Shown one piece after another: positions 11,163 through 25,186 of a DNA stretch of 64,000 bases. The notes beneath the pieces are model-generated. The model searched no databases. It was given only the letters and a program-made list of their open reading frames with translations, and had not been told where the DNA came from. Origin of the DNA: Sedimentisphaerales bacterium (GTDB lineage Bacteria; Planctomycetota; Phycisphaerae; Sedimentisphaerales; SM23-30). Made by a program: the position numbers and the translations under genes. Where the stretch lies: assembly GCA_963663965.2 (NCBI GenBank), contig CAXXFK010000020.1, forward strand, positions 192,001 through 256,000, in the 5' to 3' direction. The first letter of the stretch is position 1; each line of letters starts with the position of its first letter.

Positions 11163-12576
11163 CACTCTTGTCCAAAATAAATTTTGACAATTAAATAGAG
11201 ATATCTCCAGGATGAGTTATATTAAAGTTGCAAAAAAATAAAAAACTCAGCTGGAGATATAAACCCATGATAAAGTCAGGCAGTCTGTTTACGCAAGTAC
11301 TTTCTCTGGTAGATCGTAATGAATTTGCCCGATCTGTAGATCGATTTGGGGCGGAAAAGCATTGCAAGGGCTTCCGTTGCTGGGATCAGTTTGTGTCAAT
11401 GATGTTTTGCCAGTTGGCCGGTGCGAACTCCCTGCGTGAGATCTGTGGTGGATTATCCACGGCCCTGGGCAAATTGACCCATCTGGGCATGAAAGAGGCG
11501 CCCTCCCGTTCCACCCTGAGCTACGCGAATACTCAGCGGCCATGGCAGTTGTATGAAGCGACCTTCTATCAGCTTTATCAGTATGGCGCTGAGATCGCCG
11601 GTAAGCAGAAGCGGCGCTTCCGATTCAAGAACCCGTTATTCAGCATAGATGCCAGCACCATTGACTTGTGCCTTAAGGTGTTTGACTGGGCCAGATTTCG
11701 GCAGCGTAAAGGAGCGGTGAAACTCCACATGATGCTTGATCACCAGGGCTGTTTGCCCAGTTGGGCCTGGATCACCGACGGCAAGGTTCATGATGTCAAA
11801 GCGGCCAGAATGCTTGATTTAGAGCCGGGAACGATCGTAGCGATGGATCGAGGGTATGTCGATTACGAATTATTTGACCACTGGACTGAAACCGGTGTCT
11901 GGTTTGTCACCAAAGCCAAAAGTAATATGAACTACCGCGTGGTCGAATCTCGGGAGGTTCCTGAGAGAGGCAATATTCTGTCCGATGAGTTGATCGAATT
12001 TACCGGTTATCAAGCCCAAAAAAGATGCCCTCGTGTGATGCGGCGGATTGTGGTATGGGATGCGGAAAATGAGCGTGAGATTACCTTGCTGACCAATCAT
12101 CTGACATTTGCCGCCAGCACGATCAGTTCGATCTACAAAGATCGCTGGCAGATTGAGTTGTTTTTCAAGGCGCTCAAGCAGAATTTAAAAGTAAAGACCT
12201 TTGTGGGTACCAGCGAAAATGCCGTCAAGACACAGATTTGGACAGCATTGATATGTAGCTTAATACTGAAGATCATGCAGATGCGTTCCCGTTTTGGCTG
12301 GAGCCTGTCTAACCTGGCCGCCCTGTTAAGGCTTAACTTGATGACTTATCGTGAGTTGTGGACATGGCTGGATAATCCGTATCAAACGGCGGCATTAGGG
12401 CCGCCTGTCAACCAGCCCTTATTGTTTGAACTGTAACTTGGACAGCATGAAATATAACCGTATAAAAAAACAGGGTAACCTGAACTCAGAAAATGGAAAA
12501 ATCTGTCTGAAACAACCCTTTCAGGCCGGTTTAGAGACAACATGTTAGAGATTTCAATTTATTTTGGACAGCAGTG
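11163..12576 (+). mobile_element. IS4-family insertion sequence, 1414 bp, with 9-bp target-site duplication
   Basis: Left IR CACTCTTGTCCAAAATAAATT versus right IR (reverse complement) CACTGCTGTCCAAAATAAATT, 19/21 identical; flanking direct repeat AAGTACGAT at 11154-11162 and 12577-12585. Confidence 0.95.
11267..12436 (+). CDS. IS4-family DDE transposase (DUF4372 + DDE_Tnp_1 type)
   Basis: GGAG RBS before the ATG at 11267; WDQFVSMMFCQL..SLREI, RSTLSYAN, IDASTIDL, MDRGYVD and YKDRWQIELFFKALKQNL motifs. Confidence 0.93.
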   Translation: MIKSGSLFTQVLSLVDRNEFARSVDRFGAEKHCKGFRCWDQFVSMMFCQLAGANSLREICGGLSTALGKLTHLGMKEAPSRSTLSYANTQRPWQLYEATFYQLYQYGAEIAGKQKRRFRFKNPLFSIDASTIDLCLKVFDWARFRQRKGAVKLHMMLDHQGCLPSWAWITDGKVHDVKAARMLDLEPGTIVAMDRGYVDYELFDHWTETGVWFVTKAKSNMNYRVVESREVPERGNILSDELIEFTGYQAQKRCPRVMRRIVVWDAENEREITLLTNHLTFAASTISSIYKDRWQIELFFKALKQNLKVKTFVGTSENAVKTQIWTALICSLILKIMQMRSRFGWSLSNLAALLRLNLMTYRELWTWLDNPYQTAALGPPVNQPLLFEL

Positions 12577-13005: not shown

Positions 13006-15465
13006 ATGATCAGCATGTATAAAAAATCTTCATTACGGGATTATCTAATTATTGGTTTGACTCTCGTTTTTTGGGGTAGTTTGTGTAATCTTGCCTTCGG
13101 CGTCGACCCGCTCATACCAGTAGAAACCAGCGCCATCAAAGTCAACGGCTTCTGGTCAACCCAATATAACCGGCTCACCGAAAAATGGCTGCCCCATTGT
13201 ATCAAGGAAATGGAAGAGGGCGGCCGCGGCCGGGAACTGCTCAATCTGGTCAATACCGCCAAAGCGCTCAAGGGCGAATCCCACGGCAAATTTACCGGTC
13301 TGCCCTGGAGCGACGCCTATGTCTACAATACCGTCGAATCCATCTGTATGGCGCTGGCCATCGATCCGCAGGATGACGAAACCCTGAAAAAAGCCCAGGC
13401 GTTGCTGAGAACCAAACTCGAAGAATGGATTCCCATTATTCTGGCGGCGCAAATGGACAGCGGCTATATCCATTCCTACCACACCCTGAACGAACTGGAG
13501 CATTTCAGCAATATCGATGCCCACGAGTTTTACGTCATGGGCTATTTTCTGGAAATGGGCGTGGCGCATTACCGCATGACCAATGGTCAGGACCGGCGGC
13601 TTTATGACGCATCGAAGAAACTGGCCGATCATCTCTGCGCCACCTTTGGTCCGGAACCCAAACGCACCTGGAAAAACGGACACCCCGGCCTGGAATACGC
13701 CCTCTGCCGTCTGGGCCGGCTGGTCAATGAAGTCGATGGCCCCGGCAAAGGCAATGGGTATATCGACCTGGCCAAACATTTTCTGGACCATCAACACGAG
13801 ATCAAACCCAACCCTTACAACCAGTCGGAACGACCCGCTATCGAAATGGAACACGCCACCGGCCACGCCGTCCGGGCCACCTATTTTTATACCGCCATGG
13901 CGGATATGGCCTTATTGAAAAACGATCAGAACTATCTGCGCGCGGTGGACCGGCTCTGGTCCAACGCCATCCATCGCAAACATTACCTCACCGGCGGCGT
14001 GGGCGCGTCCCACAACGGCGAGGCATTCGCCGACGATTTTGACCTGCGCAACGATGGCTATTGCGAATCCTGCGCCAGTTGCGGTATGTCGTTCTGGGCG
14101 GATCGCATGCACCGGATCCATCACAGCGGCCACTATCAGGATGTGATCGAACGGGTGCTCTACAACAACGTGCTGGGCGCCCTGGAACTGTCCGGCGAAA
14201 ACTTTTTCTATCAGAACCCGCTCGCTTCCGACCGGTCACGCTACCCCTGGCACGCCTGCCCCTGCTGCGTGGGCAATATCCCCCGCGCCCTGCTGACCAT
14301 CAAGGATATCATGTACGCCACCAACGCCCAAAAAAACACCCTCTACCTCAACCAGTTTATGGATAGCGAGATGACCATCGGCGACATCGGCGGAACCTCA
14401 CTGCTGATCCGCCAGGAAACGGACTATCCCTGGCAGGGAACGGTTAAAATCAACCTGACCCCGGCGCGGCGCGCAACCTTTACCCTGAAACTGCGCGTAC
14501 CCGACCGGACCGAAAGCCAGCTATACACGGCAACACCCGATCTGAGCGGTGAATTTGAACTCAAAGTCAACGGCAAACGTCAACGCCTGACCGTGGAATA
14601 TGGCTACGTCAGCGTGCGGCGCGCGTGGCGCAAGGGCGACAAGGTGGAGTTGACCCTGCCCATGCCGGTCCAGCGGATTCATAGTGATGAACGGGTCATC
14701 GCCGATTTCGGGCGGGTGGCTATCATTCGCGGCCCACTCGTCTACAGCTTCGAACAGGTTGACCATCAGGCCGATGTCCGTAAACTGGTGATCGAGCCGG
14801 ATACCCCCTTAACGGCCCAATGGCAGCCGGAATTACTCGAAGGCGTCATGACCGTCACCGGCACAGCGACCATCCGGGAAGATGGCAAAGCACAGACCGT
14901 CCCTCTGATGGGCGTGCCGAACTATGCCCGGTTGAATCGGGGCGGCTATTCGCAGATCTGGATGCTGGAAGATCCCGATAAGGCCATTGACCCGGCCCTG
15001 CTGGCGGAGCAAAGCCGCAAAATCACACCCATCCCACGACCCGATCTCGAACCCCGGCAGATCGACCGGGTCATCGTCGCCGACTATCAATCGGAAAAAG
15101 CCCACAAACTCAAAGGCGAAAAGACCGACGCCGGCGAATTCAGCAACCGCGGCTGGCGCCATGCCGGCGGCGGGTGGTTCAGTTATCAGCTCAAAGTGGA
15201 TCCCCACACCGATAACGTTCTGCTGTGCAGCTTCTGGGGCAGCGATGTCGGCAACCGCGTTTTCGATATTGTTGTGGCGGACAGGGTCCTGGGCCAACTC
15301 AAACTCGACCGCAACAAACCCAATGAGTTCTTCGATGTCAGCTATCCGATCCCATCCGAATTGATCCAGGGCAAAGAAACCGTCGAGGTCCGCTTCGTCG
15401 CCGCCTCCCCCAACGCCACCGCCGGCGGCGTGTTCGATATCTGGATCTTACGCGAAAAGGAATAA
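13006..15465 (+). CDS. Secreted GH127 beta-L-arabinofuranosidase (HypBA1-like) with DUF6805-like C-terminal domain
   Basis: Signal peptide; HEFY..G, GHAVRA.Y, YCESCASC, YNNVLG, FFYQNPL and CPCCVGN Zn-cysteine motifs; C-terminal WRHA.GGWFSY..FWGSD..R.FDI domain. Confidence 0.9.
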   Translation: MISMYKKSSLRDYLIIGLTLVFWGSLCNLAFGVDPLIPVETSAIKVNGFWSTQYNRLTEKWLPHCIKEMEEGGRGRELLNLVNTAKALKGESHGKFTGLPWSDAYVYNTVESICMALAIDPQDDETLKKAQALLRTKLEEWIPIILAAQMDSGYIHSYHTLNELEHFSNIDAHEFYVMGYFLEMGVAHYRMTNGQDRRLYDASKKLADHLCATFGPEPKRTWKNGHPGLEYALCRLGRLVNEVDGPGKGNGYIDLAKHFLDHQHEIKPNPYNQSERPAIEMEHATGHAVRATYFYTAMADMALLKNDQNYLRAVDRLWSNAIHRKHYLTGGVGASHNGEAFADDFDLRNDGYCESCASCGMSFWADRMHRIHHSGHYQDVIERVLYNNVLGALELSGENFFYQNPLASDRSRYPWHACPCCVGNIPRALLTIKDIMYATNAQKNTLYLNQFMDSEMTIGDIGGTSLLIRQETDYPWQGTVKINLTPARRATFTLKLRVPDRTESQLYTATPDLSGEFELKVNGKRQRLTVEYGYVSVRRAWRKGDKVELTLPMPVQRIHSDERVIADFGRVAIIRGPLVYSFEQVDHQADVRKLVIEPDTPLTAQWQPELLEGVMTVTGTATIREDGKAQTVPLMGVPNYARLNRGGYSQIWMLEDPDKAIDPALLAEQSRKITPIPRPDLEPRQIDRVIVADYQSEKAHKLKGEKTDAGEFSNRGWRHAGGGWFSYQLKVDPHTDNVLLCSFWGSDVGNRVFDIVVADRVLGQLKLDRNKPNEFFDVSYPIPSELIQGKETVEVRFVAASPNATAGGVFDIWILREKE

Positions 15466-16241: not shown

Positions 16242-19019
16242 ATGCAACATCAAAAAACACTTACCGGTATCGTTTTTTTTATTATTTATCTATTTGTATT
16301 AAGTTTGTCCAACTCGAGCCTGGCCCAGACCAATCTCATCCGCAACGGTAATTTCGAAGGCGGCTTGCTCTACTGGCATAATCAGGATAGTCTGGCAGTT
16401 GTCAAGGAAGGTAAGGTTGGCGATTACGCCCTCCGGATCAACAGCGGCTGGACACTCAGCGCTCCGTTTGTCGCCGAATCCGATGCGATTTATACCATTA
16501 GTCTATGGGCGCGAACGATAACTGGATCAGGTCGCATCAATATCGGCATGGCTCCCACAGCACGTGAAGTCGCGGTCAATGCCAGACGTATCTGGCATCA
16601 AGATGGCGGTAAAGAAGCAGAACTGACCACCGAGTGGAAACGGATTGCCGTTTCCTGGAAGGCGGATGTCCCCCAGAATGGATTCTGGCCGTACCCTCAC
16701 TACGGAATTGTCATTGATAACTCCAATCAGAATAAGGCGATTCTTGTTGATGGAGTTACCGTCATCAAAGGCGAAGACAAAATCGCGCCGGACTATATCC
16801 CGCGCCGCCCGGTGGAAGTGCTGGCCGATCCAACCAACCTGCCGGGCTGGGATGGAGCGAAGGGTAACCTCTATGAAAAAGGCGCTGTCGCCACTCTTAA
16901 CGGCTATGTTTCGAATCCGGGATCGACAAGCCAGACCGTGACTGCCCGCTGGCTATTGATGGATTATGAAGGCGTGAAAGCCTGGTCTGATCCGATTGAT
17001 GAAAAAATTACCCTTTCACCTGGCCAGACCCGGATAGTTCCGACTCAACTGCCTCTAACAGCAACCGGCACCGTGATCGCACGGCTATCTGCACTTGATT
17101 CAGCAGGACAGGTTATCGACGTTTCAGACCTGCCGCTGACCTCACTGGCCTATCCTGAGACCGCAACTCAAAATGATTATCGAGAACGGTTCGGCGGATC
17201 GTTTGCCGGCGCGGTCGGTTGTCTGGAAAAAATGCAGCGTATCGGATTCGGCTGGTGCCGGTGGTGGCCCGAGAATAAATGGCACAACTTCCAGCCGACC
17301 AAAGACACCTTCAACTGGCAGCAAGAAAAATTCGATGAGGCCTTCCACCGGGGGATTGCCTGCCATATTGTGCTGTATGGCGAACCCAAATGGGCCAATG
17401 ACGGCGCCAGCCCGTTACCCAACGACATGCGCTGGGCCGGCGACGATCCCCGCTGGAATGATGACACCATCGAAACGAGCTGGGATACTTATATTAAAAC
17501 CGCGGTACGCACATTTAAAGGTAAACCAGTAATCTTTCAGATCGCCAATGAACCGGGCCATGACAAACGCTGGCATGACATGAAGGAAGCGTATGTCCAG
17601 TTCAACCTGCGTACCGCCCGTTTAATCAAAATGACTGATCCCGACGCGAAAGTTTCGCTTAATAACGTCTATGGCAACCCCAGTCCCCCCAACGCGGCGC
17701 TGCTGGCTACCGGTCGATTACAAAACTTTGATGTGTGGTCGTGGCATGACTATCGGGCCGGCTGGCTGTTGGATGCCCAGGGCATCAGGCGCATGCGGCA
17801 AATGCTCGATGAAGCAGGCGGTAAACACATGCAAATCTGGTTCACCGAAGGCTGGATGTACACGAACACTCTAGTGGACCAACCGCCCGCCTGTACCCAC
17901 CTGGATAGTGTTCAGAGCGCCCATGCCGTCAGCAACAGTATTGCCGAAATCACCGCGATCGGCCATGACAAAGTAATCATGTTTCACCTGCTCTATGAAA
18001 CCCACGGCCAGAGCTTCTGGGATTACAGCGGGCCGGGCGTGATGTTGTGGGATTGGTACCAATATCCGCTGCCCACCCTGGCGGTCTGGAATTCACTCAA
18101 TTACCATATCGGCCTGAGTGATCGGGCCGGATTCGTCCGCCCCCCTGGCGCCAACCTATGTATCTTCCAGGACCTGCGCCATCACCGCGGCGTCATGATC
18201 GCCTACGCCGACCGTAACTCTAAACAGGACGCCGTAATCGAACTACCCATCCACAACCTGATGGCAGAAGACATAATGGGTAATCCTGTTACCATCGTTA
18301 AGAACCAGCTGATCCTTTCTAAAACTGAACGTCCAGTGGTTTTATATGCCACTGATGATACTACTGGTCGCGTTCTCTACCAGACCTGCGAGCCGCTTGA
18401 CCGGAAATACCTGGGCTTTGTCAGCAGCGATGCGGCCGGCCGAAAAATCTATCGCATTCCCGATATCTGGGAAGGTGAGCAGAAAAACACCGCAAAGGGC
18501 AATCCCGTCCATAACGACGGCCGGCCTGTCTGGCGGATCGACCGGCTCTATCCCAATGACCGGATCATGCCCAATCATTACACGCCGATGGTCTGGGGTA
18601 ATCAATGCTGGATAGCACCGGACCACACCCATGGCGGGCATCCCAGCGCTACGGTTAAAGATGGGATTATCCGATTCGGCGCCATGGGACCCTGGAATGG
18701 TAACGATACCAATTTTAAAAAGCAGGGCGCACTGGTCTTTATCGTACCTGACACCGGCCTCTATCATCTTCAGGCAACCGCCAGTTCTCAGCCATGGGGC
18801 GGATCACAAGGTATCGCTAATGTCTTTGTGATGAAACGCGATGAGCAGCGCGTAGGCGTGATCAAGCAATATGATTTACCCCCAGATAACTCTCCCGTCG
18901 CCATTGACATCGAAATCGATGCCGCCACTGGCCACGAACTGATCTTGCTGGTAGAAATGGCGCCGTATCATAACTCATCCAATATCAGTTTGAAGGATAT
19001 CGTAATAACCAGAGACTAA
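16242..19019 (+). CDS. Secreted multidomain glycoside hydrolase (CBM4/9-like N-terminus + clan GH-A TIM barrel + C-terminal beta domain)
   Basis: Signal peptide; NLIRNGNFE.G CBM-type start; FQIANEPG acid/base and IWFTEG nucleophile motifs; SWHDY. Confidence 0.7.
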   Translation: MQHQKTLTGIVFFIIYLFVLSLSNSSLAQTNLIRNGNFEGGLLYWHNQDSLAVVKEGKVGDYALRINSGWTLSAPFVAESDAIYTISLWARTITGSGRINIGMAPTAREVAVNARRIWHQDGGKEAELTTEWKRIAVSWKADVPQNGFWPYPHYGIVIDNSNQNKAILVDGVTVIKGEDKIAPDYIPRRPVEVLADPTNLPGWDGAKGNLYEKGAVATLNGYVSNPGSTSQTVTARWLLMDYEGVKAWSDPIDEKITLSPGQTRIVPTQLPLTATGTVIARLSALDSAGQVIDVSDLPLTSLAYPETATQNDYRERFGGSFAGAVGCLEKMQRIGFGWCRWWPENKWHNFQPTKDTFNWQQEKFDEAFHRGIACHIVLYGEPKWANDGASPLPNDMRWAGDDPRWNDDTIETSWDTYIKTAVRTFKGKPVIFQIANEPGHDKRWHDMKEAYVQFNLRTARLIKMTDPDAKVSLNNVYGNPSPPNAALLATGRLQNFDVWSWHDYRAGWLLDAQGIRRMRQMLDEAGGKHMQIWFTEGWMYTNTLVDQPPACTHLDSVQSAHAVSNSIAEITAIGHDKVIMFHLLYETHGQSFWDYSGPGVMLWDWYQYPLPTLAVWNSLNYHIGLSDRAGFVRPPGANLCIFQDLRHHRGVMIAYADRNSKQDAVIELPIHNLMAEDIMGNPVTIVKNQLILSKTERPVVLYATDDTTGRVLYQTCEPLDRKYLGFVSSDAAGRKIYRIPDIWEGEQKNTAKGNPVHNDGRPVWRIDRLYPNDRIMPNHYTPMVWGNQCWIAPDHTHGGHPSATVKDGIIRFGAMGPWNGNDTNFKKQGALVFIVPDTGLYHLQATASSQPWGGSQGIANVFVMKRDEQRVGVIKQYDLPPDNSPVAIDIEIDAATGHELILLVEMAPYHNSSNISLKDIVITRD

Positions 19020-19249
19020 TCGATAAGATTATAACACCACCCCTTCCCCCTCAGCCACAATGTGTTTGATATTCTCTAACGCCCGACACATCTTAGGCCG
19101 ACCAGGCAACCGAACTACTTCATTCAATAGCGTAATTTTCAGCTGGCCCCCTGCGTCGTGCTTGGAAATAGAATCCGCACCTGATAAATTAAGGGCACCT
19201 TAATTTATTTCGTAAAGATACCCTTTCTTAAAATAGTTATGATTCTATC

Positions 19250-22200
19250 CTACAACTCCATCTCCGGATTCAACTCCACCTCCACCATAAACGGTTGACT
19301 CTCGGCGCGGTTGTCCGGCTGATAATATTCATAGACCCGGGCCGGTTCGATGCGGGCCTTCACCGGGTATTTGGCCTTGAGCTGATAGTCAAATGTAAAG
19401 GGCTTGTCTGCCGGCAGCGCGCGCAGATACAGGATACACTGCGTCCCGGTTATTTCATATCGGGCCAGTTGACCGGCGGCCTGCAACAACTGGAACCCGG
19501 CCGGATCCACTCCGAATCCCGGCGGAATACCCAGATCGACAATCGCCATCGGCACCACACCCCCGGACAGATTACGCACCGTCACCGTACAGCCCAGCCG
19601 GTCATCCACTCCCAGCCGGGTCCGGTCATAACTCACCGCGATATCCAGCTGCCGGTCCGGCCCGGGCTCAACCAGAGTCCCCGGCTCACGATCCGGCACC
19701 CAGTACCCGCCGCTCAACCGATACGGAATACTGCCGCCGCGGCTGCTGATACGGATCGCGTTTTCGCCCGGCCGCAGGATCTCTGACAAATTGAGCGCCT
19801 GCACCAGGTCACTGTTGCGCGCGTCAATCACCGCCTGCCCGGCCGGCCGGCCATTCACCTGCACCTCCAGTTGAATGGTCTGATCCGAGCCCAGCGCCTG
19901 ACGCATCCCCATCATCAGCGCCTTCATGGTCAGTATCGTACTCTGGGTGGAATGCCAGGAGCCATAGCTATCCTTCTGCCGGGTCAGCCAGGTCAGCGCC
20001 TTGCGGACAATCTCACCGTGGCGGTTGCCCTTCATCAGGGCCATCGTCCCCAGCGCCGTTGTCTCGATATCCAGGCATATGCCGCGCGAATACATCATCC
20101 CGCAACCATCGCCGCTCAGGAGGGCCAGCTGACCCTCCTGCTCAAACCGATTCGCCAGCACATCCGCCAGCTGCCTGCCGGCAGTGTCATTGGGATTAGC
20201 CGCCAACAGCGCGTTGGCCGCCAGCGCCATCACATACGGCGACCGGACCTCACCGAGATGCTCCCTCAGATACGCCATCGCGCGCGCCACGCCCTCATGC
20301 TCGATACCCGCTTCAGCCAGGTTCCAGGCAATATAGGCGGTCGGGGCGACCGGGCCCATCCGCTGGACATCCACCAGGTGCACATCCCGGTCATCCGGCC
20401 AGGATCCATCCTCCCGCTGCTTGCCAAACAGCCAGGCGGCGGTGCGGTCGATGATCCGCTTGTCCACCGAATGCACCCTGGCCATATCCGAAAATTCCAT
20501 CACGCCATAAGCGCTCAGCATAATATTGGCCGGTGGATTGCCGAACCAGTCAAAGCCGCCGCCGGCCACCTCAAAGGTCAGCAGCCGCTGATAACCCGCG
20601 GCAATGAACTTGCGGGCCTTTGCCTCGATCTCCGGCGTCACCTGTTTGGTTTCCAGCATATATTGCAGAACCATGATATTCGGATAAGTAATCGAGCTGG
20701 TCTGCTCGAAGCAGCCATACGGCATCTGGAAAATAGCGTCCAGGCCCTCCATCACCTCGCTGAAGGTCGATGGATACAACGTCAGCTGCAACTGCTGCGA
20801 ATGGGCAATCGCCTCTTCCGCCAGGGTCAGCGTATGCCGGTTATCGCCCGTCAGCGAATCGCTCACCAGCCAGTTTACCTCGCGGCCGTCCGGCTTTACG
20901 CGCACCTCGCGCCGGATCGCGTCGCTCATCGCCTGGCCCTGCGCCAGTACCATCAGCGGATGCGTGCCCACCTCAACCGCCTTGATCCGGAACGAGACCG
21001 ACAACACCTCATTCGGCTGGAGTGTCAGCTGCTTGCGCGATTGATCCAACACCTCGCACCACGAATCCACCTGCAAAGCCAGCTCCACTGTCTGCTCACG
21101 ATTCAAATAGTTATAACAGACCACCGGCAGGGTAATCTCATCGTTGCGCGTCAAAGCCACCGGCAAATCCAGGTCCACAAAGAAATCCTGGAACACCTTC
21201 AAACCCAGTTCGCAACTGCCCAGTTGCCCACCGGCCGAAACCGCGTCGATATTCATCCGCCAGGTAGTAATTGAATCGGCCGCCGTCAACTCGATCCGGG
21301 CCCGGCCGCCATCATCCGTGATCACCTGCGGCTGCCACAACAGTGTCTCAGGAAAATAATGGCGTACACGGGGGGGGGCGCTACTCTGACCTGTCATAGA
21401 CTCTGAAAACAATGAAGGATTATCATTTCTGACCATCTCGATGGCACTATCGGCCGCTTGCATGGCACTTGCCGCGACCATTTCTTTCGCCCTGATCCTT
21501 GATCTACCTAAAGCCGGCATAAATAATGATGAAACAAATAAAGATAAAAATAAAATAAGTACAATTTTCAAAATCAAATATCGAATTTGTATGATTGCAC
21601 TGAAAAACAGAATCAGCATACCGATGATTGTCCCTATAATCAAAAGTCTGAAAAAGGTATTCTTAAATATCTTCTCCATCGAACCTGACTTTTTCTGGTT
21701 ATCATATCGATTAGCATAAGAAATTGAATACATCGGTTTATCAGGTTTGAGAATCTTCATAATCTCTTGATATCTGGGTTGATTTAAAATTTCACTAAAA
21801 CCGGGATTATCGATATATTTTTGAATATTTTCCAGAATATGTGGATCAATATATTCTTTGAGCTCCTTTAAAATCTGAGCGTTTCGCAATGAATCCACTG
21901 CATTTTTTTCCCGAATCGAAAACAGCGCCATCGCCAGCGTCTGATAGCGTTCATCACCACCCAGCAGTTGCGCCGGCGATACTGCAAACTTGATCTGATA
22001 GGCCGGCTGCAGCATCTCCTCATCGATCGCGAAAAACTGCTCCATCAATCCCGGCCGGTTCTCGCCCACGTAAAAGACTGCCTCATCCACCGCGCACACC
22101 CCCAGCGCCGCCGGGACCGATTGCCGGTACCGGTCTGTCACCTGCAAATCAATTGTCACCGGATCACCCGGCCGGTAAACCGGCTTGTCAGGCCGCGCGT

Positions 22201-24058
22201 CGATACGCAACTCATTCACCGGCTGCACCTGGACAATCCGCGTATCCAGTACCGTGCGGCCCTCGTGATTGATTTGATAGGCGTTCACCCGCAGTGTACC
22301 CGACAGCGACGCCGGCAGGTCAATCACCAGATCGCCCCGCCCCGCTTCCACCTCCAGCGTCCGGGCCAGCATCGTCTGGCGGTCCTTGATAATATCGACA
22401 AACATCCGCTCCGTCGTATTGGCTGTGATCACACGGATCGCCAGCGGCTCGCCGCCGCGATAGACCGCCTTGCCGGTCCGCAGAATAAAACGCCGTTCAT
22501 CCCCCACCTGCTCCAGGCTCTTTTCATAGATCCCGTTATTGCCCTGTGTATCCACCGCCGTAATACGCAAGGGCGTCTCTTCATCGCCACTTATCGTCAG
22601 CAGCGCCACCCCGGTAGTATCGGTGCGGACCTGTTTACCATTGACATTCAGCGAACAGAGCGCCGGCCGCCCATCGGGATAAGCCGTCAGAATATAGACC
22701 CGGTTCTCCAGTCCCGGCACCATCGCGCCGCTTTCCGGAATCACATGCACATCAATCGCCTGACTCGCCACTACCACTGGTTCCCGGGTCTGCTGCGTGT
22801 GCCCGGCGGTATCGGTCACACTCACCCCCAGTTCAATCACCGCGTTGCCGCCCGTACGCAAACTGCCGGCCAGCCGGTCCGGGATAATATGCTCCAATTG
22901 AAACTTCCCCTGCGCATCCGTCTGCCCCGTCACGCGAAACAGTTCCAACTCCCCGGCCAGATAGGTGTTCGCCACCACCTCCACCTGTCCAGCGGCCACC
23001 GGCTTGCCAAAGAAATAATCCGCCTGCACCGTCACCTGCATCACTTCACCGGCCAGATAATAGGGTCGATGCGACTCCGCCATCACCTTGAATTTGGGCA
23101 GTACATACTGTTTCACCGTCACGCTCTTTTCCGAAGTCACCCCGCCGGCATCAATCACAATCTTATACAACCCGGTATTGACCAGCGTCGCCAGTTCAAA
23201 ATCCGCCGCCGCGATCCCGAATTCCGAAGTTTGCTCCTCCGCGCGAAACACCTTGTTGCCCTTGGGATCCTCGACTTCAAAAACCACCGGCTGCCGGTCG
23301 GCCGGTTTTTGCGACACGGTATGCAGCGCCAGCGCCCGCATATGGATGGTCTGGCCCGGCTGATACAGCGGCTTGTCCGTCGTCACATAGATCCGCTGCG
23401 GCCGCTTGACCGTAATCGCCTGGCTCATCGAATCGCTGTCCCACCCCACCGGAATCACATTCAGGGTATAGTCTCCGCCCGCCATCGCCGGAATCACAAT
23501 CGGATCATCCAGACAGCCATCCGGCCCGGTGCGAAACCGGCCCAGTTCCACTTTTTTATTCGAGTCCTTACTCACCAGTTCGATCCGGACCGCCTTATCC
23601 TCCAGCGGTTTGCCCGTCTGGTAATCCTCCAGCAGAACCCGCAAAGCCGCCTCACTGCCGGAATACAGGCTGTCCTGCCCCAGCACTGTCATATTCACCA
23701 ACTTGGGCGACCAGACATACGCGCGATAGCCATAATACCCCAGCGCCGCCAGATAGAATAGCGCGGCGATCTTCAACACCTTCATAAAGATCTTCGGCAC
23801 CCGGGAAGGGCCCCTGGGTTCCTGATCCGGCTCCGCGGAGCCCGGATCGATCTGACCCATAATGGATTCGGTCACATCCCCCTCTTGATAATACTGACCC
23901 GCCGCCAGCAGCCGCTCGCGCAAGGTACGATTCTCCAGGTAAAACCGCCCGCAGTCCTCACACGCCTCCACATGCAATTCCATCAGCGACCGGGTCCGCT
24001 CATCCAGCAGACCTTCCAGGTACGCGATCATTTTATCCTGACATTCCTGACATTTCAT
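19250..24058 (-). CDS. zf-HC2 anti-sigma domain fused to a membrane-anchored alpha-2-macroglobulin (thioester protein), 1602 aa
   Basis: Likely start ATG 24058 after an AAGGAG RBS. MKCQECQDKMIAYLEGLL...HVEACEDC (zf-HC2); TM helix; TDKPLYQPGQ and YVLPKF (MG domains); VDEAVF; RVRHYFPETLLW; DSITTW; MPYGCFEQ thioester; TQSTIL; MAIVDLGIPPGF; VYEYYQP C-terminus. Confidence 0.9.
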   Translation of the reverse strand: MKCQECQDKMIAYLEGLLDERTRSLMELHVEACEDCGRFYLENRTLRERLLAAGQYYQEGDVTESIMGQIDPGSAEPDQEPRGPSRVPKIFMKVLKIAALFYLAALGYYGYRAYVWSPKLVNMTVLGQDSLYSGSEAALRVLLEDYQTGKPLEDKAVRIELVSKDSNKKVELGRFRTGPDGCLDDPIVIPAMAGGDYTLNVIPVGWDSDSMSQAITVKRPQRIYVTTDKPLYQPGQTIHMRALALHTVSQKPADRQPVVFEVEDPKGNKVFRAEEQTSEFGIAAADFELATLVNTGLYKIVIDAGGVTSEKSVTVKQYVLPKFKVMAESHRPYYLAGEVMQVTVQADYFFGKPVAAGQVEVVANTYLAGELELFRVTGQTDAQGKFQLEHIIPDRLAGSLRTGGNAVIELGVSVTDTAGHTQQTREPVVVASQAIDVHVIPESGAMVPGLENRVYILTAYPDGRPALCSLNVNGKQVRTDTTGVALLTISGDEETPLRITAVDTQGNNGIYEKSLEQVGDERRFILRTGKAVYRGGEPLAIRVITANTTERMFVDIIKDRQTMLARTLEVEAGRGDLVIDLPASLSGTLRVNAYQINHEGRTVLDTRIVQVQPVNELRIDARPDKPVYRPGDPVTIDLQVTDRYRQSVPAALGVCAVDEAVFYVGENRPGLMEQFFAIDEEMLQPAYQIKFAVSPAQLLGGDERYQTLAMALFSIREKNAVDSLRNAQILKELKEYIDPHILENIQKYIDNPGFSEILNQPRYQEIMKILKPDKPMYSISYANRYDNQKKSGSMEKIFKNTFFRLLIIGTIIGMLILFFSAIIQIRYLILKIVLILFLSLFVSSLFMPALGRSRIRAKEMVAASAMQAADSAIEMVRNDNPSLFSESMTGQSSAPPRVRHYFPETLLWQPQVITDDGGRARIELTAADSITTWRMNIDAVSAGGQLGSCELGLKVFQDFFVDLDLPVALTRNDEITLPVVCYNYLNREQTVELALQVDSWCEVLDQSRKQLTLQPNEVLSVSFRIKAVEVGTHPLMVLAQGQAMSDAIRREVRVKPDGREVNWLVSDSLTGDNRHTLTLAEEAIAHSQQLQLTLYPSTFSEVMEGLDAIFQMPYGCFEQTSSITYPNIMVLQYMLETKQVTPEIEAKARKFIAAGYQRLLTFEVAGGGFDWFGNPPANIMLSAYGVMEFSDMARVHSVDKRIIDRTAAWLFGKQREDGSWPDDRDVHLVDVQRMGPVAPTAYIAWNLAEAGIEHEGVARAMAYLREHLGEVRSPYVMALAANALLAANPNDTAGRQLADVLANRFEQEGQLALLSGDGCGMMYSRGICLDIETTALGTMALMKGNRHGEIVRKALTWLTRQKDSYGSWHSTQSTILTMKALMMGMRQALGSDQTIQLEVQVNGRPAGQAVIDARNSDLVQALNLSEILRPGENAIRISSRGGSIPYRLSGGYWVPDREPGTLVEPGPDRQLDIAVSYDRTRLGVDDRLGCTVTVRNLSGGVVPMAIVDLGIPPGFGVDPAGFQLLQAAGQLARYEITGTQCILYLRALPADKPFTFDYQLKAKYPVKARIEPARVYEYYQPDNRAESQPFMVEVELNPEMEL

Positions 24059-24090
24059 GGCTGTATCTCCTTGCCAACCGCAGTTGACAG

Positions 24091-24639
24091 TTATGGGTTG
24101 AGTGAATGGGCCAGCCGTTCGCGCAGCATCTGATAGGCGCGCGACAGCATCTTGGTCACCGTGCCGATCGGCATCTCCATCTGGGTCGCCACTTCGCGGC
24201 ACGTCAGACCGCTGAAATAGCGCATCATCACCAGGTTCCGATACGGCTCCGGCAGGCTCTCCAGCGCCTCTTCCAGTTCATAATCGCCCGCGGGCGACTG
24301 CGAACCGGGATGATTCGGTTGGGTTTTCATCCGGGACACCTCTTTGTGTTTCTTTTCCGTGCGAACGGTTTCCAGTACGACCAGGTAAGCGATCCCCAAC
24401 AGCCACGCGCCCAGCTTCTCCGGCTCCTTCAACTCATCCAGCCCGCGCCACGCTCGCAGAAAGGTCTCCTGCACAATATCGTCCGTATCATGGATATGGT
24501 GTTTACGCGCCAGCCAGGCCCGCACGATCGGCTGATAACGCCGGATCACTACCCGAAACGCCTCAGCCTGACCGCCCAGGCACCGCGCGATCGCCTCCCG
24601 GTCGGACAGGGCCGCCTGATTGTTGGTCTGTGTTTCCAA
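24091..24639 (-). CDS. ECF RNA polymerase sigma factor (sigma-70 regions 2 and 4)
   Basis: DDIVQETFLRAW...AWLLGIA (region 2); LPEPYRNLVMMRYFSGLTCREVATQMEMPIGTVTKMLSRA (region 4.2); ends 32 bp upstream of the zf-HC2 gene start. Confidence 0.93.
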   Translation of the reverse strand: METQTNNQAALSDREAIARCLGGQAEAFRVVIRRYQPIVRAWLARKHHIHDTDDIVQETFLRAWRGLDELKEPEKLGAWLLGIAYLVVLETVRTEKKHKEVSRMKTQPNHPGSQSPAGDYELEEALESLPEPYRNLVMMRYFSGLTCREVATQMEMPIGTVTKMLSRAYQMLRERLAHSLNP

Positions 24640-24661
24640 TGCTTAACCTTCCCATAAATAC

Positions 24662-24687
24662 GTGGCACGGGCATCCTGCCCGTGATT
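24662..24687. repeat. REP-like palindromic element
   Basis: GTGG-CACGGGCA-tcc-TGCCCGTG-att; a degenerate copy ending cctgcccgtgatt lies at about 38278-38303. Confidence 0.55.
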
Positions 24688-25186
24688 GAGTTTTGTATTT
24701 TTTCACAGGCGCCAATGCCCGGTCAACCTGGTTTTTCGCAACAGGAACGGATTGCTATTCACTTGTTTAACGATTAAAGGATACACCAGTGTTTCTTTCT
24801 ACCTGATTGTGAAAAAAATCAGCCGGATTGCGACAAAATATTATATTTTTTTGCATTTCTTCATTTCCACCCCATCCCCAACACCGCTCTAACCGCCGGT
24901 AAAAAATCAATTTAGCAACAAACACTCGACCTTTTACAGGTTTGTCAGGACAAATACCAGCTTCAGATATGCCTTGACACTATGCATAATAATGTGTTAT
25001 TACTGAATAATAGGTATGACCGAATTTGCATATTAGAGTATTTAATGAAAATCAGGCATTATATGTCTATATTTTCTTAATTTGGTAATAAAAATTCTGA
25101 GTCATGAAAGGAGTGAACATGTTGGTGGAATCAAGCTCTAAGGTTGTTTCGGTAGTTGTCTTTCTTTATGGTTAAATGTTTTCTAA

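Follow-up and report, generated by a model that had tools for sequence, protein, structure and literature searches.

In the window, the 64,000-nucleotide stretch of DNA that was analysed, an ECF sigma factor gene is followed on the same strand by a single gene in which a putative anti-sigma domain is joined to a predicted thioester macroglobulin (A2M). We favor, at a probability of roughly 0.55, the reading that these genes constitute a two-gene ECF module, consisting of a sigma factor and a membrane anti-sigma factor with a thioester A2M ectodomain, in which the springing of the trap would be the trigger and the output would be self-renewing. The A2M would serve as the sensor and probably also as the main output of the sigma/anti-sigma pair.

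ECF sigma/anti-sigma pairs are among the commonest bacterial signalling systems, and to our knowledge the extracytoplasmic cue is undefined for most of them. Outside this setting, thioester macroglobulins are known as traps of animal innate immunity and as guards of the enterobacterial periplasm; here, the whole of such a macroglobulin is predicted to act as the sensor, a design by which a protease trap may signal that it has been used. Should the link prove functional, the protein would be a bacterial means of defence that announces when it is spent and has itself replaced, and the module would be a transcription switch of a protease-responsive or, in a wider sense, thioester-responsive kind.

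The sigma gene and the macroglobulin fusion

The sigma gene (24091..24639, minus strand) codes for 182 aa from a TTG start, with GGGAAGG ahead of the start. Its product matched Sigma70_r2 (residues 32-96), Sigma70_r4_2 (121-172) and Sigma70_ECF in Pfam, whose matches were counted when above the gathering cut-offs, and the scan found no region 3 match in the 182-aa protein. The NCBIfam model TIGR02937 (sigma70-ECF) scored 76.7 bits against a cut-off of 42.9, and none of the named ECF subgroup models of NCBIfam attained its cut-off. From these matches, the product is predicted to be an ECF (group IV) sigma-70 factor with regions 2 and 4 only. It shares 43% identity with the sigma factor of the orthologous locus in genome G009 and 39% with its counterpart in G005.

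The fusion is a single ORF of 1602 aa (19250..24058, minus strand) that starts at ATG 24058, preceded by GGAGAT. The longest form of this ORF, counted from the first GTG, is 19250-24202 (minus strand); ATG 24058 appears to be the sensible start, leaving exactly 32 nt behind the sigma stop. This spacer (24059..24090, minus strand) carries the putative ribosome-binding site GGAGAT, and a terminator scan found no terminator-like site on its minus strand. The ORF, Pfam and NCBIfam data thus agree with the original prediction of an ECF sigma gene at 24091-24639, 32 bp ahead of the fusion ORF. Pfam matches and the translation gave the domain order zf-HC2, TM helix, MG2, MG3, A2M_BRD, A2M, GCFEQ, TED and A2M_recep. 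The HMM scan that had been proposed as a check placed zf-HC2, MG2, A2M, TED_complement and A2M_recep above their Pfam cut-offs in one 1602-aa ORF.

The zf-HC2 domain (PF13490, 30.9 bits against a cut-off of 22.2) covers residues 3-36 (23951..24052, minus strand) and contains the zinc motif C3-x2-C6 ... H29-x3-C33-x2-C36, in which C3, H29, C33 and C36 provide the HxxxCxxC and upstream Cys ligand of a class I zf-HC2 anti-sigma factor. TM helix 1 follows at residues ~90-116 (23711..23791, minus strand); this hydrophobic stretch forms a single helix (89-115) in the AF2 model. In a predicted complex of the sigma factor with the anti-sigma domain, the ipSAE was 0.76 (0.75, 0.77 and 0.76 in separate runs), compared with 0.00 in the highest-scoring of 3 controls, the partner pLDDT was at least 77, and the runs shared at least 75% of contacts. 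Among 157 solved complexes, 116 attained this ipSAE mark, as did 2 of 215 mismatched pairs, in a benchmark that is only rough when own alignments are used. Residues 8-17 and 42-73 of the anti-sigma domain are predicted to contact sigma residues 25-64 and 117-176, so that both regions 2 and 4 would be touched; because the pair is of the textbook type, the high ipSAE may mirror likeness to solved sigma/anti-sigma complexes. Conserved synteny (see below) and the ipSAE of 0.76 versus 0.00 support the prediction that the N-terminus serves the adjoining ECF sigma factor as its class I anti-sigma domain, as had been claimed from the zf-HC2 motif, and the complex prediction that had been suggested as a check agrees with that claim. 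The protein resembles the class I anti-sigma factors RsrA, ChrR, RslA, RseA and the ligand-triggered RsiV in its HxxxCxxC domain with one TM helix next to it, in being encoded directly behind an ECF sigma gene, and in its predicted contacts to regions 2 and 4; it differs from them in an extracytoplasmic part of ~1480 residues, which is a predicted thioester A2M, and in two extra TM helices.

The ectodomain begins with an N-terminal macroglobulin ring at residues 222-662 (22073..23395, minus strand), where Pfam placed MG2 at 222-315, MG3 at 317-385 and A2M_BRD at 527-662. The A2M (MG7) domain (PF00207, 74.6 bits) lies at residues 905-994 (21077..21346, minus strand), with FPETLLW at residues 902-908, and is followed by the TED (PF07678 TED_complement, 1.3e-45) at residues 1098-1381 (19916..20767, minus strand). 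The thioester motif GCFEQ falls inside the TED_complement match; the translation puts it at residues 1115-1119 (20702..20716, minus strand), exactly where it had been claimed, and it is conserved in 119 of the 119 listed homologues. A C-terminal MG8 or receptor-binding-type domain (PF07677 A2M_recep, 52.2 bits against a cut-off of 21.7) occupies residues 1504-1587 (19298..19549, minus strand). In the AF2 model of residues 88-1100, the MG domains are all-beta with a mean pLDDT of 80.5, and Foldseek matched the model to C3, CD109, A2ML1, C5 and ECAM at E values of 1e-46 to 1e-35. Sequence matches to solved structures were strong for CD109 (2e-68), human A2M (1e-60), TEP1 (~1e-47) and C3 (~1e-38), and weak for 4u48 (6e-12, one stretch). 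Pfam, these matches and the fold all support the predicted complete thioester A2M, with the MG domains, FPETLLW, GCFEQ, TED and C-terminal domain that had been read from the sequence.

Among known macroglobulins, CD109, human A2M, A2ML1, insect TEP1 and C3/C4/C5 are the best solved-structure matches of the fusion in both sequence and fold, and the Pfam models that it hits (TED_complement and A2M_recep) are of the eukaryotic type. CD109 is membrane-anchored, and in C3/C4/C5 the bait position is occupied by a helical insert (ANA). The fusion differs from these eukaryotic proteins in being bacterial, polytopic and equipped with a putative cytoplasmic signalling domain. The bacterial type I A2M proteins (E. 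coli ECAM/YfhM and Salmonella SaA2M; 4u48, 5a42 and 4ziq) are likewise envelope thioester proteins of the monomeric type, tethered to the inner membrane, and ECAM has the MG ring, TED and C-terminal domain in common with the fusion (fold match E 3e-37 to 3e-35). Whereas proteins of the ECAM/YfhM type bear the signal peptide of a lipoprotein and are encoded beside pbpC, the fusion has an anti-sigma domain and TM helix instead of the lipoprotein signal, a predicted TM hairpin at the bait, linkage to an ECF sigma gene and no pbpC-like neighbour, and its motif is GCFEQ in place of the CLEQ of that type.

A predicted membrane-embedded bait position

The bait position, between A2M_BRD and MG7, comprises 242 residues, predicted to form an insert of helices, a hairpin of two TM helices and a segment of ~18 disordered, variable residues. 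The original prediction had implied an ordinary exposed bait; Kyte-Doolittle scanning, AF2 modelling and the alignment gave instead a helical insert and a two-helix TM hairpin. The insert (residues ~671-770; 21749..22048, minus strand) is helical in both AF2 models, with pLDDT 52-94. Neither an ANA-like nor a pilin-like fold was recognized in it: for the model of residues 655-905, VIA-align returned no informative fold match, only generic helical hairpins with a best Z of 6.7, below the noise level that the tool states for helical models, which gives no evidence either way. An ANA-like fold, as in C3/C4/C5, is thus not detectable in the insert.

The hairpin (21509..21655, minus strand) consists of residues 802-823, a QIRY loop and residues 828-850 in the Kyte-Doolittle scan, and the AF2 models extend it to a long antiparallel helix pair (779-823 and 828-879). 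Its second helix, of 52 residues (828-879; 21422..21577, minus strand), aligns with prepilin-type helices of homologues and is degenerate in the window; the MAFFT alignment places LFMPALGRSRIRAKE of the window opposite LLLPAVQSAREAARR of those helices. At this position, which is the last bait TM helix, homologues matched N-terminal models (N_methyl, 25.0 bits; SBP_bac_10/DUF1559, 27.1 bits). The nearest known counterparts are the prepilin-type (class III signal) N-terminal helices of pseudopilins and PVC DUF1559 proteins, and modular type IV pilins. The helix of the fusion differs from these in being internal rather than N-terminal, and a prepilin domain was rejected for the window copy: its sequence, QIRYLILKIVLILF..., lacks both the prepilin Gly(-1) of the cleavage site and Glu(+5), and Pfam gave no significant match to it (PilX_N, E=2). 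A prepilin-peptidase-type site, G-F/I-T-L/V-I/V-E, occurs in 4 of 118 homologues (P0014, P0015 and P0042, and nearly complete in P0026), and a prepilin peptidase gene is present in the window's genome.

Right ahead of FPETLLW lies a length-variable linker (residues 884-901; 21356..21409, minus strand) with pLDDT below 50 (model residues 797-814), whose columns in the MAFFT alignment are unconserved and gapped. In the models, these ~18 residues look like the only bait-like segment at the bait position, the remainder of which is predicted to be mostly folded or membrane-embedded, with no free exposed loop. The predicted membrane-stapled bait recurs across a large PVC/Chloroflexi family. A membrane-embedded, pilin-like bait across thousands of homologues would broaden the definition of A2M, and would be relevant to the evolution of the C3/A2M insert position.

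Conservation of the gene pair and its promoter-like motifs

The synteny survey covered 80 species-level loci, 62 of which have a complete N-terminus. An anti-sigma-like N-terminus was found in 12 of these 62, and an ECF sigma gene lies upstream in 12/12, adjacent in 11; at the remaining locus (L067), one ORF separates the A2M gene from the C-terminus of a sigma factor that lies at the edge of the contig. Three loci (L018, L059 and L080) have a sigma gene upstream, yet an N-terminus that is of another type or damaged, and in the other N-complete loci without such an N-terminus (0/47) no sigma gene lies directly upstream. For same-family genomes, both orthologues that match from residue 1 have an ECF sigma gene that shares 4 nt with the start of the A2M gene. 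The genome search proposed earlier for ECF plus zf-HC2-A2M neighbours thus found linkage in every anti-sigma-bearing locus and both same-family orthologues. An anti-sigma-type N-terminus is present in 26 of the best 119 database homologues, and the fusion is kept in at least 3 separated clades; the fused architecture is not unique to the window's genome. In proteins with an N-terminus of another type (L018, L059, P0005 and P0016), Pfam recognized A2M domains and nothing else.

A candidate ECF-type promoter, GTCGCAA-N15-TCAC, was found by eye at 24809..24834 (minus strand), ~170 nt ahead of the start of the sigma gene, with a sigma-70-like site, TGGAAA-18-TATAAT (24840-24869), just upstream of it. 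The candidate is the sole match within the window, where 0.05 would be expected, and GTCGCAA-N14-15-TCAC precedes 4/4 sigma genes examined in the window's clade (that of the window, those of two same-family orthologues and that of an own-genome paralogue). Genome-wide, the exact motif, with no mismatches allowed, occurs 9 times in 7.24 Mb against a rough chance estimate of ~7, and only two of these matches, both ahead of sigma genes, look meaningful. By eye, TTCAAC-N16-17-GCGCATA or a near variant is found ahead of most of the 12 Planctomycetia-clade sigma genes. These promoter-like motifs, which differ between the clades and lie ahead of the sigma genes, suggest sigma autoregulation.

The sigma/A2M operon contains no protease gene, and none of the 15 neighbouring ORFs (6790-35537) gave a penicillin-binding or transglycosylase match. 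Glycoside hydrolase genes neighbour the operon.

Searches of the literature on macroglobulins with anti-sigma, ECF, zf-HC2, prepilin or Planctomycetes yielded no description of an anti-sigma/A2M fusion and no report of a thioester A2M as an anti-sigma sensor domain, and among titles and abstracts on bacterial macroglobulin bait regions with transmembrane segments, nothing relevant appeared. The terms 'macroglobulin', 'A2M', PF01835 and PF00207 are absent from the one supplementary file consulted of an ECF re-classification (PMC7826278) and from the main text of PMC7406223. In line with the original statement that no characterised example of ECF plus zf-HC2-A2M was known, no published description was found, and this recurring anti-sigma::A2M design is apparently so far undescribed.

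Proposed mechanism and alternatives

In the mechanism that we propose, the sigma gene would be co-transcribed with the membrane anti-sigma::A2M gene, and the zinc-finger domain (residues 1 to ~75) would hold the sigma factor at the inner membrane by clamping its regions 2 and 4. TM helix 1 would span the membrane and MG1-MG8, CUB and TED would be periplasmic, with the hairpin at the bait position as a second membrane attachment, which would staple the A2M down at its middle. The trigger would be an attack on the A2M by which the trap is sprung or destroyed, most likely a cut in linker 884-901 or the ectodomain by a protease that reaches the periplasm. The damaged anti-sigma factor would then be cleared by regulated proteolysis, possibly by the M50 site-2 proteases whose genes are present in the genome, and the sigma factor freed. 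Release would need a step beyond the bait cut, because this cleavage leaves MG1-6 on the anti-sigma helix; since site-2 proteases normally require a trimmed ectodomain, and ~700 periplasmic residues would stay on TM1 after bait cleavage alone, a site-1 step would be required. Freed sigma factor would, as the conserved promoter-like motifs suggest, transcribe its own operon, and therefore the spent single-use trap would be replaced, making the A2M both sensor and main product.

A more specific version of this mechanism, which is possible, if somewhat unlikely, is a closed loop on a single-use covalent trap, with one sigma factor held per stapled A2M and set free to rebuild the trap once this is sprung or destroyed, and with the prepilin-derived hairpin, rather than a soluble bait loop, as the trigger point. 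The family would then be a so far undescribed class of polytopic, complement-like thioester proteins activated at or in the inner membrane, with several lineages wired to ECF factors, and prepilin peptidase itself would perhaps activate some of its members in PVC, Chloroflexi and others.

The motifs ahead of the sigma genes could also belong to a pure dosage homeostat, in which the anti-sigma domain would do no more than tie synthesis of the A2M to its abundance, newly made A2M titrates the sigma factor one-to-one, ordinary turnover frees it and no external signal is sensed. No further exact copy of the motif fronts a recognizable target in the genome, which fits this idea, as does an operon without a sensor-specific partner gene, but the genomic search tolerated no mismatches, and ECF/anti-sigma pairs are usually cue-responsive. 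In addition, a covalent single-use trap is consumed by its target, which would make turnover signal-dependent and merge the homeostat with our main reading. We regard a homeostat blind to outside signals as unlikely.

Similarly improbable is a complement-like contact sensor, whose thioester would bind covalently to a non-protease target (such as a foreign cell surface, polysaccharide or amine). In its membrane variant, the pilin-like hairpin would be the target of a peptidase (intramembrane or of the prepilin type) or of a membrane-active effector, and the protein would report contact or membrane attack rather than a soluble protease. The fusion is closer in sequence and fold to CD109, C3 and TEPs than to the enterobacterial A2M 4u48, the bait position is predicted to be membrane-embedded, and both the peptidase-type sites of a few homologues and the prepilin peptidase gene are consistent with the membrane variant. 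However, the loss of Gly(-1) and Glu(+5) from the window copy argues against it, no target can be named, and the glycoside hydrolase neighbourhood is circumstantial.

It is still more doubtful that the module is a ZAS-type redox switch, in which oxidation of the cytoplasmic HxxxCxxC zinc site would free the sigma factor and the A2M would be an effector with no part in signalling. The spacing of C3, H29, C33 and C36, which we take to be RsrA-like, would suit such a switch, and the NCBIfam RsrA model gave a weak match (E 2.6e-4, 21 bits), far below its cut-off of 62.5. Nevertheless, most zf-HC2 anti-sigma factors are not known to be redox sensors, and two members of the Planctomycetia clade (L050 and L064) have lost zinc-ligand cysteines and retain the sigma linkage. 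The maintenance of the A2M fusion in separated clades argues that the ectodomain matters.

A chimeric assembly, or two genes misread as one across an AT-rich island, is hardly credible: composition does shift abruptly at ~21450-21950 and the source assembly has 42 contigs and 5.4% estimated contamination, but the frame is open across the island, homologues align on both sides, the G009 orthologue has an equal GC3 dip, a second assembler gave an identical 5.9 kb, and the fused architecture is found in many further genomes. The second assembly is a Logan contig from one public run, which spans 19000-24900 unbroken with 0 differences and 0 gaps, and is not independent DNA because the run may be the window's own source. 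With this contiguity and the open frame, the separate zf-HC2 and A2M genes that had been named as a refuting case were not seen.

The AT-rich stretch covers ~500 nt of the fusion ORF (GC 0.28-0.39) and is coding, because the frame is open throughout. Within it, GC3 falls to 0.28-0.35 at residues 721-840 (21539..21898, minus strand), compared with 0.65-0.87 in the parts of the ORF that precede residue 720 or follow residue 900. An origin of this island by recent horizontal transfer was rejected, as blastn and tblastn found no further copy or donor in its own genome and the G009 orthologue dips too. The dip is not family-wide, with a median GC3 difference of -0.02 in the 33 loci that have two or more TM segments in the bait and of -0.04 in the 31 loci that have 0-1.

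The gene pair and its A2M ectodomain

The ECF sigma ORF occupies 24091-24639 on the minus strand (182 aa, TTG start preceded by GGGAAGG) and is followed on that strand, after a 32-nt spacer containing GGAGAT, by the anti-sigma::A2M fusion ORF at 19250-24058 (1602 aa from ATG 24058). In a mechanical ORF list the fusion starts at GTG 24202, within the sigma gene; we took ATG 24058 as the start because the ribosome-binding site and the orthologues fit it. The sigma protein matched Sigma70_r2 and Sigma70_r4_2 in Pfam, with no Pfam match for region 3, and scored 76.7 bits against the NCBIfam ECF superfamily model TIGR02937 (cut-off 42.9). Translation of the fusion placed putative zinc-site residues at C3, C6, H29, C33 and C36, a hydrophobic helix (TM1) at approximately residues 90-116, FPETLLW at residues 902-908 and the GCFEQ thioester motif at residues 1115-1119 (nt 20702-20716, minus strand). 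Pfam cut-offs were exceeded by zf-HC2 (residues 3-36), MG2 (222-315), MG3 (317-385), A2M_BRD (527-662), the MG7 domain A2M (905-994), TED_complement (1098-1381, E 1.3e-45) and A2M_recep (1504-1587). ORF analysis, Pfam scan and translation together located every element named in the original prediction where it had been placed. At the sequence level, the pair carries the defining features of the A2M/TEP family, zf-HC2 anti-sigma factors and ECF sigmas.

The closest solved structures by sequence were eukaryote-type, among them CD109 (2e-68), human A2M (1e-60), A2ML1, insect TEP1 and C3/C4/C5; Salmonella A2M (4u48) reached only 6e-12. AF2 modeled residues 88-1100 (42-row alignment, mean pLDDT 80.5, pTM 0.67) as a chain of beta-sandwich MG domains, and Foldseek matched this model to C3, CD109, A2ML1, C5, A2M and ECAM (E 1e-46 to 1e-35). 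The thioester motif is intact in the fusion, and GCFEQ was found in all 119 listed homologues (the best 119 of 3529).

Proteins of the ECAM/YfhM type have a lipoprotein signal and a pbpC neighbor, whereas the fusion has neither. Two bacterial A2M types are recognized, of which type I is described as thioester-bearing and eukaryote-like (PMC5764988). The fusion would operate like a class I anti-sigma factor and a type I A2M in one protein. Literature searches found no anti-sigma/A2M fusion, in agreement with the original statement that no characterized example of this architecture was known. No A2M-linked ECF group is mentioned in the main text of PMC7406223 and no A2M group appears in a portion of one supplementary file of the ECF classification paper PMC7826278, other parts of which, or the ECF Hub, could list one. 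Public databases do contain the architecture, automatically labeled, for example, 'zf-HC2 domain-containing protein'.

Sigma linkage across relatives and predicted binding

A word-indexed protein search, in which 8000 candidates were scored, returned 3529 proteins at E <= 1e-3. Source names of the homologues included Sedimentisphaerales, Phycisphaerae, Verrucomicrobia, Lentisphaerae and Kiritimatiellae, the nearest being named Sedimentisphaerales and Phycisphaerae. On contigs representing one genome per species, relatives were encoded by at least 651 of at least 660 pattern matches, and the 80 retained loci also cover Armatimonadota, Chloroflexota, WOR-3, Cloacimonadota and others. Among the window's own genome and 60 relatives, 11 of 61 had an A2M match at E <= 1e-20 (9 of 24 within the same family), and two of these 11, G009 and G005, matched the fusion from residue 1. 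The window's own genome holds further A2M paralogues at C39:29277-33857 and C31:10719-14662; one is intact (1679 aa, no match to the anti-sigma N-terminus) and the other is split, its N-terminal part being interrupted by two in-frame TGA codons.

We searched every ORF of the 80 loci with a local HMM seeded by the window sigma plus its first matches, and typed the A2M ORFs with HMMs of the anti-sigma N-terminus. Of the 62 loci whose N-terminus is complete, 12 had one of the anti-sigma-like type, and 11 of these 12 had a same-strand ECF sigma ORF immediately upstream. At the twelfth (L067), the contig edge cuts such a sigma down to its last 59 residues, and one small ORF comes next. Two loci (L018 and L059) had an upstream sigma and a different long cytoplasmic A2M N-terminus without a Pfam match, and at L080 the upstream sigma is broken by a stop and the A2M start is damaged. 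None of the remaining 47 N-complete loci had a sigma directly upstream; a weak sigma-70-family ORF (E 1e-7) lies about 1 kb upstream at L005, and other sigma ORFs occur on the opposite strand at L010, L028 and L059. In both orthologues matching from residue 1 (G009 and G005), the A2M start is overlapped by 4 nt by an ECF sigma, 43% and 39% identical to the window sigma, respectively. The linkage of homologues to ECF genes, on which the original prediction depended, therefore held in 2 of 2 such orthologues and, directly, in 11 of 12 anti-sigma loci, against 0 of 47 others. In L018 (5692-6540) and L059 (5503-6300), the sigma and A2M ORFs overlap, stop over start, and the alternative N-terminus reads IEELTLALLDG...; the same ectodomain may here carry a second type of anti-sigma module.

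The best 119 database homologues included 26 with an anti-sigma N-terminus by local HMMs and 17 by precomputed Pfam, both lower bounds. The public gene call for the G005 orthologue (P0006; locus L100, contig C165) begins at an internal Met and so lacks a 66-residue zinc-finger N-terminus; database counts of the fusion are therefore underestimated. In a FastTree phylogeny built on the last 690 residues (91 rows, SH-like support only), anti-sigma forms fell in at least three separated clades. The tree requires the N-terminus type to have changed state at least eight times, seven of these being forced by starred branches, a count that mis-called database starts could inflate. Being unrooted, it does not separate gains of the fusion from losses.

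The complex of the sigma (16-row alignment) with fusion residues 1-95 (17-row alignment) was predicted to form, with an ipSAE of 0.76 (runs 0.75, 0.77 and 0.76); the best of three controls scored 0.00. Partner pLDDT was at least 77 and at least 75% of contacts were common to the runs. Of solved complexes 116 of 157 attain this mark, and of mismatched pairs 2 of 215, counts that are only approximate with alignments of one's own. In the models, fusion residues 8-17 and 42-73 contact region 2 (sigma residues 25-64) and region 4 (117-176), which is the class I anti-sigma mode. Since solved sigma/anti-sigma complexes exist, the score may mirror likeness to them rather than the behavior of this copy.

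The bait position

Between the end of A2M_BRD (662) and the start of MG7 (905) lie 242 residues, on whose layout two AF2 models concur. In place of an ordinary exposed bait loop, AF2 and hydrophobicity indicate a helical insert, a predicted transmembrane hairpin and a short low-confidence stretch. The helical region spans approximately residues 671-770 (moderate confidence) and is followed by two long antiparallel helices (779-823 and 828-879). The hydrophobic half of each (802-823 and 828-850) borders a short loop, QIRY, and the two halves form the predicted hairpin. Residues 884-901, immediately N-terminal to FPETLLW, had pLDDT below 50 and, when 12 two-TM forms were aligned, were gapped and unconserved; by these features they are the sole bait-like segment of the fusion. 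No membrane-embedded A2M bait was described in the literature searched. Searched by fold on its own, the insert matched nothing but generic helical hairpins (best Z 6.7).

The second hairpin helix and following residues (LFMPALGRSRIRAKE) aligned with LLLPAVQSAREAARR-type sequences in homologues. At this position, Pfam N_methyl matched P0015 (25.0 bits, cut-off 21.2) and the start of SBP_bac_10/DUF1559 matched P0108 (27.1 bits, cut-off 23.3). Among the 118 scorable listed homologues, 83 had the motif [LIVMF][LIVMF]P[AS][LVIF] and four (P0014, P0015, P0026 and P0042) a prepilin-peptidase-type site, G-F/I-T-L/V-I/V-E. The window's own helix lacks both Gly and Glu of the prepilin site and has no significant Pfam match, and is at most a degenerate prepilin-type relic. 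In a few relatives, among P0014, P0015, P0042 and P0026, the last bait helix has a complete K-K-G-F-T-L-I-E-type site, so the C-terminal thioester half of these proteins might be cleaved away and treated as a pseudopilin would be.

By a crude Kyte-Doolittle scan of the 62 N-complete loci, 16 had approximately 5-7 TM segments at the bait position, 15 had 2-3 and 31 had 0-1; a membrane-stapled bait is therefore a trait of large clades and not of the whole family. In many relatives, including many 1680-aa homologues, there are about six such segments, the last being the prepilin-type helix. Third-position GC falls from about 0.65-0.87 to 0.28-0.35 at 21539-21898 (residues 721-840), fading by about 21350, a stretch inside the fusion ORF that spans the helical insert and hairpin. 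A similar dip occurs in the G009 orthologue (over its six-TM insert), L001 and L059, and is absent from most family members; possible causes are relaxed selection, cassette exchange and a slowing by codon choice that serves late membrane insertion.

Proposed mechanism, candidate promoters and sequence integrity

Computation established the domain architecture, the conserved sigma linkage, the intact thioester motif, and the predicted binding and bait-position membrane hairpin. The N-terminus would be cytoplasmic and the A2M part periplasmic, the even number of helices in the insert bringing the chain back to the periplasm, and the sigma would be held at the membrane by the fusion N-terminus. 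Damage to or activation of the A2M would be the trigger, after which the anti-sigma might be cleared by regulated proteolysis (the genome encodes M50 proteases, as most bacteria do) and the freed sigma would induce its own operon. The proposal that one protein acts as protease trap and alarm is plausible in outline, with a bait that differs from what it assumed. Its weak point is the coupling step: after a cut at 884-901 the anti-sigma helix would still bear MG1-6 and the hairpin, and further trimming or a conformational signal would be needed.

GTCGCAA-N14-15-TCAC was found by eye upstream of four of four sigma genes (window, G009, G005 and an own-genome paralogue), in the window at 24809-24834 (minus strand). 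It is the single match in the 64 kb (0.05 expected); genome-wide there were nine exact matches against a rough chance estimate of about seven, and a T-rich context was common only to the two that precede sigma genes. In the Planctomycetia clade, TTCAAC-N16-17-GCGCATA or a close variant preceded most of 12 sigma genes (by eye), and GCGCATA alone occurred in 8 of the 12 upstream regions. ECF promoters typically have an AAC-containing -35 box. These candidate promoters fit the usual autoregulation of ECF operons and leave the rest of the regulon undefined. Autoregulation means that loss of the anti-sigma::A2M protein would raise A2M synthesis. A signal-free dosage homeostat is a rival to the trap and alarm. 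A complement-like sensor of contact or membrane attack is a second rival. A further rival, a ZAS-type redox switch at the zinc site, is weakened, since L050 and L064 have lost the zinc-site cysteines and retain the sigma linkage.

An artefact is practically excluded: a single contig from a different assembler and a public run spans 19000-24900 with 0 differences and 0 gaps, and contig pieces from another run of that sample span the sigma/fusion junction. These data rule out an assembler artefact, the runs possibly being the window's own source and so not independent DNA. The same unbroken contig fits the earlier reading of one ORF rather than separate zf-HC2 and A2M genes.

The TTCAAC-N16-17-GCGCATA loci were L022, L025, L028, L031, L050, L052, L060, L066, L068, L072 and L080. 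The own-genome paralogue (L087; G000:C21:134840-138196) encodes an ECF sigma 38% identical to that of the window, then a protein of 486 aa that begins with a similar zf-HC2 domain; its upstream motif is GTCGCAA-N14-TCAC. In the sigma leader, a perfect 8-bp stem (CACGGGCA...TGCCCGTG) lies at 24666-24684, just 5' of the ribosome-binding site, and a terminator scan scored it as terminator-like on the plus strand only. No recognizable partner for the pair was seen among the neighboring genes, which encode GH127-type glycosidases (two GH127/DUF6805 paralogues at 6790-9162 and 13006-15465), a Sel1-repeat protein, a DDE transposase (11228-12436), 2-oxoacid:ferredoxin oxidoreductase subunits and, downstream of the fusion and convergent with it, a CBM-containing protein. 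The genome comprises 7.24 Mb in 42 contigs (48.6% GC, estimated completeness 94.6%, estimated contamination 5.4%). Composition of the window is very uneven (0.35-0.61 GC in 2-kb windows, the AT-rich blocks being intergenic and in part genic), and its GC skew stays negative throughout.
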